Assembly (NCBI GenBank): GCA_944389235.1
Contig: CALXLO010000001.1
Span: forward strand, 26,956 to 90,955
Source: an uncultured Alphaproteobacteria bacterium
GTDB taxonomy: Bacteria > Pseudomonadota > Alphaproteobacteria > Rs-D84
DNA: 64,000 bases
Direction of reading: 5' to 3'
The notes under the pieces are model-generated. The model did no database searches and was not told the origin of the DNA. It saw nothing but the letters and a program-made list of their open reading frames with translations. Position numbers and translations under genes: made by a program. Below, one piece after another: positions 46,423-48,159 of this stretch; the first letter of the stretch is position 1; every line of letters begins with the position of its first letter.

Positions 46423-48159
46423 TTATTTACCCGTGTGATATGTTTGACCGTTGTATTCCAGGTTTATCCCATCACCCGAACCAGATTCCAATATGCCATA
46501 ACACATACCGCCATTATAACCAATGTGTATCGCCGGCGACGATAACTTTTCACTATATAATGGTATTACTAACCCACTGCCTGTACGCAATGTTGTAAAC
46601 CCCAGCCCACATAACTGGCTGCATACACCGTCTGAACTTTGATTATACCCATCATTACACACAGTCGTATATTCACAATTATTCCCATAATACACAGTAC
46701 TGCTGACTGGAACACGATTGCCACCAGTGATACTTTGTTCACTACATGTCGCATAACACCCACTTTGACCAATATTACCACCCGCAGAATTTGGATATGC
46801 ATCTGGACATGCGGGACATGTTGAACCACTGATATAATGGTCTGCACTGGCTGATGTAGGTTTATCCAGTTCTTGTTGGCAGTTTGCGTTGTTTGTACTG
46901 CATCCGCTTTTTATTGTGCCATCGCCAGTACCAGCACTGTTGGAATACGCAACATAATTACATGCTGACCCAGAACATGCTTTACACGATACACTGGCAC
47001 ACCCACTGGGCTTAGCACATGCTGTTTGACCTCCAGTCCATGCACGCGATTTGGTATTACTATAACACGATGTTATGCCACCGGTATTACCATCTGGTGA
47101 ATTTGGGTACCCCGATGGACAGGATTTGCAACTATTACCATCTTTGTAATACCCTGCTGCACATGATGTAATGGTTAATGTACCACCACTGCACGAGCCC
47201 CATGAACTGCACCCGGTGCATTGCGACGAACTGGTTGCACCGATTGGTCCACTGGTATGATTACCCGTACACTGTTGTTTAGCACCACTGATTGTACCTG
47301 CGTATGCATGTGCATTACTTAATTCCGTGCTGGTTGGATTGCGTGAACATGATTGTGATAAGTCTGTCGCACTGATACTGGTGCAAGATAGACACCTGTT
47401 ACCAGCACTGAGACCATTTAAGAAATACCCTGCTGCACATGATGTAATGGTTAATGTACCACCACTGCACGAACCCCATGAACTGCACCCAGTACATTGC
47501 GACGCACTGATTGCACCGATTGGTCCACTGGTATGATTACCAGTACATTGTTGTGTTCCACCTGTCATTGTACCAGCGTATGCATGTGCATTACTTAATT
47601 CCGTGCTGGTTGGACTGCGTGAACATGATTGTGATAAGTCCGTCGCACTGACACCTGTACATGCCGGACAGCTGCTGCCGCTTTTATAATATCCTGATTT
47701 ACAAGATATGCTGATTGAGCATGTTGATGCCGGTGCATCGCACGAACCACCGTAATAGTATTTTCCACTGGTTGATGAACTGCCGTGGGTACAGGTCGCA
47801 TTAGCTGGGCATCTCTGCCGTGTACATGCCCTGGTGCAGGATTTATAGCATTGGGTTATGACTTTTGACCCCTCGGCAGAATTTGGATAGTCAGACGGGC
47901 ATGGTTTGCAAATAACTGTGCCGCCACCATAACTGCCCGCAGGGCAGATGACAAGAATAGGGGGACGGTCACCACCACACAAAGTTTTGCATAAGCTTTG
48001 GGATGCCGCGCAACATATCGGAGAACCAAGTTCAACTGGGCATGCAACAGTACCTGCAGGACAACCATCACCGCCGACTTGGGTGATTGCATATAATGGA
48101 AATGTTGATAATGCACTAAACAAAAACACCAAAACCAAACGGTGGTTTAGATTCGGCAT
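46423..48159 (-). CDS. Secreted cysteine-rich repeat protein with ephrin-receptor-like/furin-like (GCC2_GCC3, VSP-like) CxxCPxGY repeats
   Basis: Signal peptide (LVLVFLFSALSTFPLYA) and about 52 Cys in 578 aa (hand count). Repeated motifs are CKPCPSDYPNSAEGSKVITQCY, CKSCPSGYPNSPDGNTGGITSCY, CPACPDAYPNSAGGNIGQSGCY and C-AAGY(F/Y)-x5-7-C-x-SC. The track ORF starts at TTG 48162; the first ATG is at 48159. No purine-rich SD is visible. Confidence 0.75.
   Translation of the reverse strand: MPNLNHRLVLVFLFSALSTFPLYAITQVGGDGCPAGTVACPVELGSPICCAASQSLCKTLCGGDRPPILVICPAGSYGGGTVICKPCPSDYPNSAEGSKVITQCYKSCTRACTRQRCPANATCTHGSSSTSGKYYYGGSCDAPASTCSISISCKSGYYKSGSSCPACTGVSATDLSQSCSRSPTSTELSNAHAYAGTMTGGTQQCTGNHTSGPIGAISASQCTGCSSWGSCSGGTLTITSCAAGYFLNGLSAGNRCLSCTSISATDLSQSCSRNPTSTELSNAHAYAGTISGAKQQCTGNHTSGPIGATSSSQCTGCSSWGSCSGGTLTITSCAAGYYKDGNSCKSCPSGYPNSPDGNTGGITSCYSNTKSRAWTGGQTACAKPSGCASVSCKACSGSACNYVAYSNSAGTGDGTIKSGCSTNNANCQQELDKPTSASADHYISGSTCPACPDAYPNSAGGNIGQSGCYATCSEQSITGGNRVPVSSTVYYGNNCEYTTVCNDGYNQSSDGVCSQLCGLGFTTLRTGSGLVIPLYSEKLSSPAIHIGYNGGMCYGILESGSGDGINLEYNGQTYHTGK
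47150..47662 (-). repeat. In-frame tandem duplication (276-bp period, 2 copies, roughly 90% identical) inside the Cys-rich gene
   Basis: taccctgctgcacatgatgtaatggttaatgtaccaccactgcacga... occurs at 47150 and again at 47426. It encodes two 92-aa modules (...ATDLSQSCSR(S/N)PTSTELSNAHAYAGT...CTGNHTSGPIGA...CTGCSSWGSCSGGTLTITSCAAGY...). Confidence 0.9.

Follow-up and report, generated by a model that had tools for sequence, protein, structure and literature searches.

The locus and its product

The stretch of DNA analyzed here, hereafter the window, comprises 64,000 nucleotides of contig CALXLO010000001.1 from an uncultured alphaproteobacterium, and the subject of this report is one gene within it, together with the family of its product, its variation between strains, and an inverted repeat over its start codon. 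The gene lies in the order rpoB, rpoC, plsX, window gene, PLD, a gene for a secreted protein of 746 amino acids (aa), and fabH. It is a minus-strand open reading frame (ORF) at 46423-48159 that starts with ATG, with a TTG one codon upstream at 48162, and encodes 578 aa. The product contains exactly 52 cysteines in regular spacing (9.0% of its residues, compared to an average of 0.98% in the other 39 proteins of the window) and is also rich in Ser, Gly, and Thr. Hydropathy analysis revealed one N-terminal hydrophobic segment (Kyte-Doolittle maximum of 2.0 for a 19-residue window, at aa 8), to which a Sec-type signal peptide was assigned (Table 1); beyond it the maximum is 1.23, and neither a further membrane-spanning segment nor a lipobox was found in the protein. 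N-termini of like type are kept in its paralogs. An earlier prediction made from the sequence alone (the original prediction) had described a secreted protein of 578 aa with about 52 cysteines, a description borne out by the signal peptide and the exact count.

The motif CxxCPxxYPNS occurs at three sites (CKPCPSDYPNS at aa 84, CKSCPSGYPNS at aa 344, and CPACPDAYPNS at aa 448) and CxxGY[YF] at aa 153, 241, and 333; both had been quoted in the original prediction and are present. CxxC is found eight times, compared to 4.6 ± 1.9 times in shuffles of the protein's own sequence, and the enrichment is therefore only modest. Two features had escaped the earlier description, namely, a 92-aa tandem duplication (aa 164-255 and 256-347), the second copy of which is overlapped at its end by the complete module at aa 333-366, and the inverted repeat over the start codon. 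An AlphaFold2 model with the family alignment as input is confidently all-beta (mean predicted local distance difference test [pLDDT] score, 76.6), and the protein ends in NGQTYHTGK.

Table 1. Features of the window gene and its 5' region (positions of the window)
Feature	Position	Strand	Remarks	Basis
Coding sequence (CDS), 578-aa Cys-rich protein	46423..48159	-	Stop codon 46423-46425
Sec-type signal peptide, aa 1 to ~26	48082..48159	-	MPNLNHRLVLVFLFSALSTFPLYA followed by ITQ; cleavage site inferred	Hydropathy
Cys-rich module 1, aa 72-112	47824..47946	-	CPAGSYGGGTVICKPCPSDYPNS...C; Ephrin_rec_like type	Motif; pLDDT 81-88
92-aa tandem unit, copy 1, aa 164-255	47395..47670	-	8 Cys	Self-comparison with copy 2
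92-aa tandem unit, copy 2, aa 256-347	47119..47394	-		79% aa and 85% nucleotide (nt) identity to copy 1
Complete module, aa 333-366, ending CY	47065..47163	-	CAAGYYKDGNSCKSCPSGYPNSPDGNTGGITSCY; end of interval at Cys, aa 365	Module alignment
Module 3, aa 437-472	46744..46851	-	...STCPACPDAYPNSAGGNIGQSGCYATC	Motif; pLDDT ~90
Conserved C-terminal domain, type 1, aa 513-578	46426..46623	-		Tail alignments, profile A1, model
Inverted-repeat arm C	48141..48159	-	First 19 nt of CDS, ATGCCGAATCTAAACCACC	Self-comparison
Spacer between arms, 50 nt	48160..48209	-	Putative invertible core	Directly upstream of ATG
Inverted-repeat arm B	48210..48228	-	Exact reverse complement of CDS nt 1-19, GGTGGTTTAGATTCGGCAT	Self-comparison
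Copy A	48230..48243	-	Direct copy of CDS nt 1-14	Self-comparison

A family native to Enterousia and Rs-D84

A protein database search returned 85 homologs, all of them metagenomic, and those with an organism label are without exception hypothetical proteins from an "Alphaproteobacteria bacterium" metagenome-assembled genome (MAG). The 85 follow a common plan, in which the signal peptide leads into a Cys-rich array that varies between members and the C-terminal tail is conserved. When 1.84 billion representatives were searched with a profile built from the tail (A1), 961 clusters were matched at an E value of ≤1e-3 and 482 at ≤1e-10. The C-terminal domain almost always occupies the extreme C-terminus of its carriers, which range from about 100 to 2200 aa. 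Many carriers are short, and in these a single CxAGYY module stands between the signal peptide and the tail; some bear Flg_new repeats as passenger, and others bear passengers without a Pfam match. The window ORF matches A1 with an E value of 2.2e-29 over aa 495-576 (residues 509-590 of the 592-residue stop-to-stop ORF), and the window protein, with its signal peptide and the domain at its extreme C-terminus, is a member of this family.

Carriers were named by scanning GTDB species genomes with a tight subgroup alignment of the C-terminal domain (A4); the full-length window protein, used as query against genome contigs, returned no relatives. The carriers named in this way proved to be Candidatus Enterousia sp. 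and MAGs of Alphaproteobacteria recovered from the cecum and rectum of roe deer, the colon of water buffalo, and feces, and one of them, MAG SIG50, has at least 8 genes with the domain. As for the window itself, its RpoC clusters at ≥90% identity with a protein of an "Alphaproteobacteria bacterium" MAG, and its plsX, PLD, fabH, and rpoC are 79 to 86% identical to those of SIG50.

Enterousia belongs to the GTDB order Rs-D84, uncultured gut bacteria with genomes of 0.75 to 1.0 Mb, a purely fermentative metabolism, and a predicted dependence on partner cells (PMC12306168). The original prediction had pictured an intracellular or symbiotic bacterium; the intracellular part of that picture is not supported, as the lineage is described as a reduced-genome, partner-dependent gut bacterium and not as intracellular (PMC12306168). 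A literature search for Rs-D84 together with cysteine-rich proteins, or for GCC2_GCC3 in bacteria, found nothing relevant. A preprint on "cysteine-rich repeats" as markers of horizontal gene transfer (10.64898/2026.06.07.730663) deals with another, short hallmark and makes no mention of the family. Overall, we conclude that the window gene is one member of a large, lineage-specific, and previously undescribed family native to the reduced-genome gut Alphaproteobacteria of Enterousia/Rs-D84.

Allelic variation at the locus

At the locus flanked by plsX, rpmF, and rpoC, three alleles were found, encoding 399 aa (L003), 578 aa (the window and a second contig, L033, on which the allele is identical), and 762 aa (L027). 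The 399-aa allele is without both 92-aa units, and the 762-aa allele carries a different N-terminal cassette of ~770 nt where the others have ~220 nt; the remaining DNA is ~95% identical among the three. Variation of this kind was also seen at a second locus, the dnaK-secA interval, where the gene encodes 898 aa in one strain and 484 aa in another. Many family genes are located at contig ends, and so break assemblies.

Between strains, the rate of nonsynonymous substitution (dN) of the window gene is 0.018 to 0.042, compared to 0 to 0.004 for plsX, rpoC, PLD, fabH, and the gene of the adjacent 746-aa protein; at 0.035, against 0.0006 to 0.004, it is 10 to 60 times that of its neighbors. The synonymous rate (dS) is raised as well, at 2 to 5 times the neighbors' values, which suggests recombination with divergent copies. 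The dN/dS ratio is 0.2 to 0.3, compared to 0.00 to 0.06 in the four housekeeping neighbors; that of the adjacent 746-aa secreted protein is 0.26, raised like the window gene's in spite of its low dN. Variation of this extent is the behavior expected of exposed, diversifying surface components, although it is no proof of surface exposure.

Compared with window positions 40802-54096, locus L023 of MAG SIG50 has a rearranged or inverted gene order around plsX. SIG50 has no family gene between plsX and PLD and has one a few kilobases away. Family genes may mark recombination breakpoints.

An inverted repeat over the start codon

The first 19 nt of the coding sequence recur upstream as an exact reverse complement, and arms B and C of this inverted repeat extend to 28 nt with 3 mismatches (Table 1). 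The 50-nt spacer between them is pyrimidine-rich and without a Shine-Dalgarno sequence. Together with copy A, arm B forms a 14-bp hairpin followed by ATTTTT, an arrangement resembling a terminator, and a 13-codon upstream ORF (48202-48243) begins in copy A. Ahead of the repeat come a conserved −10-like box and the upstream ORF. In the L027 allele the N-terminus reads MPKTN compared to MPNLN in the window, and the upstream arm carries a matching, compensatory 4-nt change; L003 is a recombinant of these two.

A like arrangement was found in the SIG50 paralogs L012 and L022 and in L030, L031, and L032. When L030 and L031 were compared (nt 1371-1545 of each), an 84-bp segment bounded by AACGGTGG...CCACCGTT proved to be inverted (96.4% identity on the minus strand) between flanks that are collinear at 94 to 97% identity. 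Each end of the segment carries an outward-facing ATG and about 5 codons, so a start codon is supplied in either orientation. In some genes the first residues differ by orientation, as in MVLFFNHRL versus MPIFNHRL and MLFLNHRL versus MPKKNHRL.

These observations provide partial evidence for a putative on/off inverton that spans the start codon. A short invertible element whose repeats include the start codon would precede genes with an N-terminus of the "xxNHRL" subtype, the window gene among them, and a flip would change the sequence just upstream of the ATG and could switch expression on or off (phase variation). In the orientation of the window, a terminator-like hairpin with its T-run and a pyrimidine-rich leader precede the ATG, and flipping of the spacer would remove the T-run.

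The same repeat could instead work in RNA, with arm B pairing with the start-codon region and blocking translation until reading of the 13-codon upstream ORF, or a factor acting in trans, lifts the block. A very stable long-range stem of −39 kcal/mol is predicted for a 131-nt region and stems of −46 to −53 kcal/mol for 175-nt regions, and such pairing would agree with the compensatory changes between the window and L027 and with the conserved −10-like box and upstream ORF ahead of the repeat. However, RNA pairing leaves the physical inversion of the 84-bp segment between L030 and L031 unexplained, and identical arms are equally expected of recombination sites; we therefore regard a purely RNA-level role as unlikely, if worth keeping in view.

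Two further loci bear on elements of this kind. In L028, a gene at 8847-9767 on the minus strand, immediately downstream of P0001, encodes a tyrosine recombinase of 306 aa with Phage_integrase and SAM-like N-terminal domains; it could be a housekeeping XerC/D or a candidate invertase. Upstream of the paralog P0005 (L001, ~7860-8000), the 5' element is degenerate, with an in-frame TAA in place of the expected start region, and P0005 as called begins at an internal GTG and has no signal peptide; this may represent an off-state, a pseudogene, or a mis-call.

The conserved C-terminal domain

The type 1 tail follows the pattern C..LC..G.T.LR.G.G..IPLY....S.PAI.I.....MCYG.L.SG....IN.EY.G.TYH..., and the two tail subtypes (27 tails of type 1 and 22 of type 2) align as one domain. 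Modeled on its own (46426-46680), the domain is compact, with six beta strands, a mean pLDDT of 80.9 (core, ~90), and a predicted template modeling score (pTM) of 0.67; the strands are 3 to 9 residues long and the domain measures ~65 aa. Against the PDB, the model had no structural match (E ≥ 1; template modeling [TM] score, <0.25), and TbpB, HpuA, and hemophilin were not matched. No Pfam or NCBIfam model covers the domain, whether in the window protein or among 43 family members. The sole structural likeness above noise came from BFVD, where the model marginally resembled three uncharacterized gut-phage proteins (A0A8S5NPH6, A0A8S5SD73, and A0A8S5SL66), with TM scores of ~0.5, root mean square deviations of 3.1 to 3.7 over 63 to 75 columns, probabilities of 0.94 to 1.0, and E values of 0.09 to 0.35.

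A fixed position at the end of very different passengers is what would be expected of a sorting, anchoring, or assembly module, and we infer such a role here. The original prediction had set the last 70 aa or so apart as unrelated to the repeats and as a possible anchoring or secretion signal. The first part stands, as this is a distinct and separately conserved domain; the second fits the fixed position of the domain and is a prediction.

Known systems were considered in turn. Repeated weak matches of four giant Bacteroidota proteins of the type IX secretion system (T9SS) to A1 lie within Ig/PKD-like repeats and were set aside as compositional or distant fold-level noise. A T9SS sorting domain was rejected, there being no Por_Secre_tail or TIGR04183-type match in the window protein or the 43 members; T9SS is not known from phyla other than those related to Bacteroidota. 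Autotransporters end in an outer-membrane beta-barrel of ~250 aa or in a four-strand anchor after a coiled coil, with an aromatic last residue. An autotransporter or trimeric anchor was likewise rejected, as the domain has ~65 aa, short strands, no coiled coil, no terminal aromatic residue, and no Autotransporter or YadA_anchor match. Signals of the type I secretion, PEP-CTERM, and LPXTG kinds were set aside on the anatomy (short strands, no transmembrane helix, a Sec signal, and many cysteines). Export by a type IV secretion system (T4SS) was raised by the presence of virB8, virB9, and virB10 in the window, and nothing links that system to the window protein; we know of no precedent for Sec-dependent Cys-rich arrays as T4SS substrates apart from pertussis toxin.

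The domain might also target the protein to a Slam/DUF560 (type 11) translocon that flips it to the surface. Slam cargo such as TbpB and hemophilin combines a variable N-terminal part with a conserved C-terminal beta domain, a plan that the family resembles, and in loci L001 and L002 a PF04575 SlipAM gene immediately precedes the paralog P0005. This adjacency, however, concerns only 1 of ~12 distinct family loci examined; the window has no Slam homolog, and no family gene is present in a Slam locus with 55% identity (L026). In both Slam loci a lipoprotein encoded upstream is the likelier cargo, and because of this we judge the neighborhood of P0005 and Slam to be coincidental. Moreover, six short strands within ~65 aa do not make the eight-stranded barrel of ~120 aa, and the window protein is without a lipobox. 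A Slam route is thus highly improbable.

Cysteine-rich modules and their origin

The original prediction had assigned the repeats to the ephrin-receptor-like (GCC2_GCC3), furin-like, and Giardia variant-specific surface protein (VSP) types. Searched against Pfam, the window protein matched no family even at E ≤ 10, PF07699 and VSP included, and NCBIfam likewise gave none. That prediction had taken significant hits to these families as its own measure, and by this measure the window protein therefore fails as a repeat-family member; it is not a demonstrable member of PF07699. Among 10 homologs scanned, four narrowly exceeded the Pfam gathering cutoff of PF07699 (Ephrin_rec_like/GCC2_GCC3; 23.1 bits), namely, P0031, P0041, P0063, and P0070, at 24.4 to 29.3 bits, and others had sub-threshold matches to TNFR_ELAPOR1_6th. 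Among 43 family members, Ephrin_rec_like was matched in 6 and TNFR_ELAPOR1_6th in 8 at E ≤ 0.01.

A 33-position profile built from 20 complete modules (A5) was searched against all PDB sequences. Its best matches were the cysteine-rich domain (CRD) of EphA4 (E = 0.017), ELAPOR1 (E = 0.022), R-spondin-2 (E = 0.038), and the EphA2 CRD (E = 0.04). The alignment with the EphA4 CRD runs motif for motif and residue for residue (CKIGYYKA...CAKCPPHSY), while the furin-like repeats of R-spondin-2 (E = 0.038 to 0.13) cover half a module. A Foldseek comparison of the full model with the PDB, in which a multidomain rod is hard to superpose, placed DR5, 4-1BB, EphA4, EphA2, ELAPOR1, and a Chlamydomonas mastigoneme at the top, none of them significantly (E ≥ 0.27; TM score, ≤0.32). 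A phmmer search of PDB sequences with the window protein gave nothing meaningful, and a module profile (A6) run against a database of 5.8 billion proteins gave 6 short matches among 115 candidates scored. The window protein does carry tandem copies of the PF07699-type motif C-x2-G-x-[YF]...C-x2-C-P-x-G-x-[YF]...G...C. Individually weak, these several lines agree that the modules are of the Ephrin_rec_like/TNFR/furin-like kind at the level of motif and probable fold. The repeat assignment of the original prediction thus holds for the kind of module, through profile A5 and the four paralogs above the cutoff, and not for the window protein itself, which has no Pfam match.

That prediction had further proposed host mimicry or transfer of the gene from a host, and had named, among the outcomes that would speak against it, best homologs confined to bacterial proteins of a known family. 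No eukaryotic protein was found among the significant homologs, and the labeled ones are all from Alphaproteobacteria MAGs or Ca. Enterousia of animal hindgut or feces, which counts against the proposal by that yardstick. The G+C content at third codon positions (GC3) of the window gene is 0.333, compared to 0.369 ± 0.038 in its neighbors, its synonymous codon choice is native, and it is set among housekeeping genes. With no eukaryotic homologs and with native GC3 and codons, a recent host-to-bacterium transfer is therefore not supported, and a many-copy family of ~960 clusters also runs counter to it. An ancient origin of the module from eukaryotes, or transfer in the reverse direction, is possible.

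One could still suppose that the modules came from a eukaryotic host or a protist and that they mimic ephrin-receptor or TNFR-like domains to engage host ligands. The residue-for-residue alignment with the EphA4 CRD, the paralogs above the PF07699 cutoff, the weak top Foldseek matches to TNFR, Eph, and ELAPOR1, and the carriers' life in animal guts would all fit. Set against these are the all-bacterial homologs, the native codons, and the lack of a Pfam match already described; the very large size of a family diversified inside one bacterial lineage; and the fusion of the modules to a C-terminal domain found only in bacteria and, in part of the family, also to Flg_new repeats. Eukaryotic domains are matched only marginally (E values of 0.02 to 0.3), and what is shared with them, a scaffold of Cys, Gly, and Tyr, could be ancient or convergent. 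We consider such mimicry very unlikely.

Genomic neighborhood

Several other genes in the window relate to the envelope or to interaction, including homologs of virB8, virB9, and virB10, TolC/AcrB, YidC, and LspA. The 746-aa predicted secreted protein (50261-52501, plus strand) has no Pfam match and consists of a long low-complexity region rich in Ser, Thr, Ala, and Arg, followed by a C-terminal half with paired cysteines, many of them as C-x6-C; it is kept beside the window gene in L003 (~99% identity) and is 57% identical in MAG SIG50. Homologs of VirB10 (TrbI), VirB9 (CagX), and VirB8 lie in a row at 28159-32957 on the minus strand, a type IV secretion system in a genome of <1 Mb, and the VirB10 homolog is long (822 aa) with a proline-rich repeat.

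Two other candidate surface proteins are a 903-aa protein with Chlam_PMP (Chlamydia polymorphic-membrane-protein) repeats (58374-61085, minus strand) and a 356-aa protein with a marginal match to an autotransporter beta-domain (7459-8529, plus strand). About 6.5 kb from the window gene, a divergent pair encodes proteins of 330 aa (54594-55586, minus strand) and 462 aa (55673-57061, plus strand) without Pfam matches, the second with 3% Cys. The pair recurs at 47 to 56% identity beside the family member P0023 in SIG50 (L004, L005, and L017; ~4.4 to 6.8 kb). Its association with a family gene may reflect chance or a functional link.

Discussion

Our best reading, to which we assign a probability of roughly 0.55, is that the window gene encodes a variable extracytoplasmic, probably surface-located, and adhesin-like protein of a family native to Enterousia/Rs-D84, a function that is predicted. 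The family combines a signal peptide, a variable array of CxxC modules, and a conserved all-beta C-terminal domain of ~65 aa; many copies are held per ~0.9-Mb genome, and whole modules and cassettes come and go at the window locus from strain to strain. The protein would be exported by Sec, would acquire its disulfides in the periplasm, and would then be displayed on the cell surface or released from it, where the rigid Cys-rich array could serve as a variable stalk for adhesion to, or recognition of, a partner cell or a host surface. The step common to all members would fall to the C-terminal domain, which would either keep the protein on the cell envelope or be recognized by a machinery for export or anchoring.

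A number of points weigh against this reading and against the switch proposed for the gene. Surface exposure is read from architecture and variability alone, and no known sorting signal or secretion partner was found, with the C-terminal domain lacking a match in Pfam, NCBIfam, and the PDB. The dN/dS ratio is below 1, hence indicates no net positive selection, and relaxed constraint together with recombination may explain the fast change. Cysteine counts of mature members are even in 38 and odd in 64, a tally made with a crude signal cut on non-independent paralogs. As for the switch, opposite orientations were seen only between homologous loci of different genomes (L030 and L031) and not at one locus; the window, L003, L027, L029, and L033 share one orientation, so that even the identical allele, L033, is oriented like the window; and no recombinase gene lies within the 64-kb window. 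Lastly, the complementarity of arm B to the start codon may act in RNA, although a role in RNA and a DNA switch are not mutually exclusive.

A nonadhesive component of the envelope would account for part of the same evidence. The protein might belong to a disulfide-cross-linked, S-layer-like protective coat in the periplasm or outer layer, with its variation due mainly to repeat instability or phage pressure. The number of copies is a high investment for a tiny genome, the many odd Cys counts could allow intermolecular disulfides, and the C-terminal domain, with its weak fold likeness to gut-phage proteins, could be a self-assembly or envelope-binding unit. Coat genes, however, are usually one or few, abundant, and conserved, and not dozens of length-variable paralogs with individual 5' switches; a coat role is, in our estimation, quite unlikely, and we retain the adhesin-like surface protein as the preferred reading.

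Rs-D84/Enterousia are widespread and uncultured in animal and human guts. That at least 8 long, Cys-rich, and rapidly changing secreted proteins are kept in a genome of ~900 genes points to them as its main interface with the outside, and the family offers ways of testing how this uncultured lineage, dependent on partners, deals with its surroundings in the gut. The C-terminal domain, with ~960 clusters, is a candidate for a new sorting or anchoring signal in diderm bacteria, and the very small element over the start codon can be tested for directly in existing metagenomic reads. The finding of "eukaryote-like" Ephrin_rec_like repeats that are native to a bacterial lineage, and abundant in it, also cautions against reading such repeats as a sign of host-to-bacterium transfer.

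Among known systems, the Ephrin_rec_like, TNFR, and furin-like repeats share with the modules the core motif C-x2-G-Y-Y-x(4-9)-C-x2-C-P-x2-Y...G...C, the tandem arrangement, an extracytoplasmic setting, and a disulfide-rich, all-beta rod, and they provide the best profile and fold matches. In contrast to them, the window protein is bacterial, falls below every Pfam threshold (with marginal matches at E values of 0.02 to 0.3), has a Sec signal and a unique C-terminal domain, and includes further Cys-rich units without a named relative, the 92-aa tandem unit among them. The C-terminal sorting domains of diderm bacteria (T9SS, autotransporter, and Slam barrels) are likewise small, conserved, beta-rich terminal domains behind variable passengers, but neither sequence nor fold matches them, and both the domain and its strands are too short for a membrane barrel.

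The VSPs of Giardia likewise form a large multigene family, whose secreted, CxxC-rich products combine a Cys-rich ectodomain that varies with a C-terminal end that is conserved; they too vary strongly between strains, and expression of one member at a time is plausible for the Rs-D84 family. The window protein differs in having no C-terminal transmembrane helix, no CRGKA tail, and no VSP match in Pfam, which removes the VSP-type membership suggested by the original prediction, and variation would here arise by DNA inversion and by insertion or deletion of cassettes, whereas Giardia uses RNA-based silencing. The resemblance is one of functional analogy and not of membership. By that analogy, Rs-D84/Enterousia may run a bacterial counterpart of the VSPs, with a repertoire of at least a dozen genes for Cys-rich coat proteins or adhesins, many of these genes individually switched by start-codon invertons of 50 to 84 bp that in some genes would also swap the first codons of the signal peptide, and with products routed to the surface by a novel pathway that would recognize the new 65-aa C-terminal beta domain; we offer this as a tentative and rather doubtful extension.

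Invertons are known to control phase-variable surface genes, as in fimS of E. coli, the promoter invertons of gut Bacteroides, and intragenic invertons. The element described here is like these in placing short inverted repeats around a small segment at the 5' end of a predicted surface-protein gene in a host-associated gut bacterium, and in being seen in both orientations, here among homologous loci of different genomes. It is unlike them in the size of the segment (only 50 to 84 bp), in the lack of any recombinase found adjacent to it, in repeats that include the start codon and the first 5 to 6 codons, and in supplying an ATG in each orientation, in some genes with another N-terminus. What is new is thus the C-terminal domain family and the candidate start-codon inverton, and both are set within known kinds of system, the variable Cys-rich coat or adhesin families and the surface genes under inverton control.

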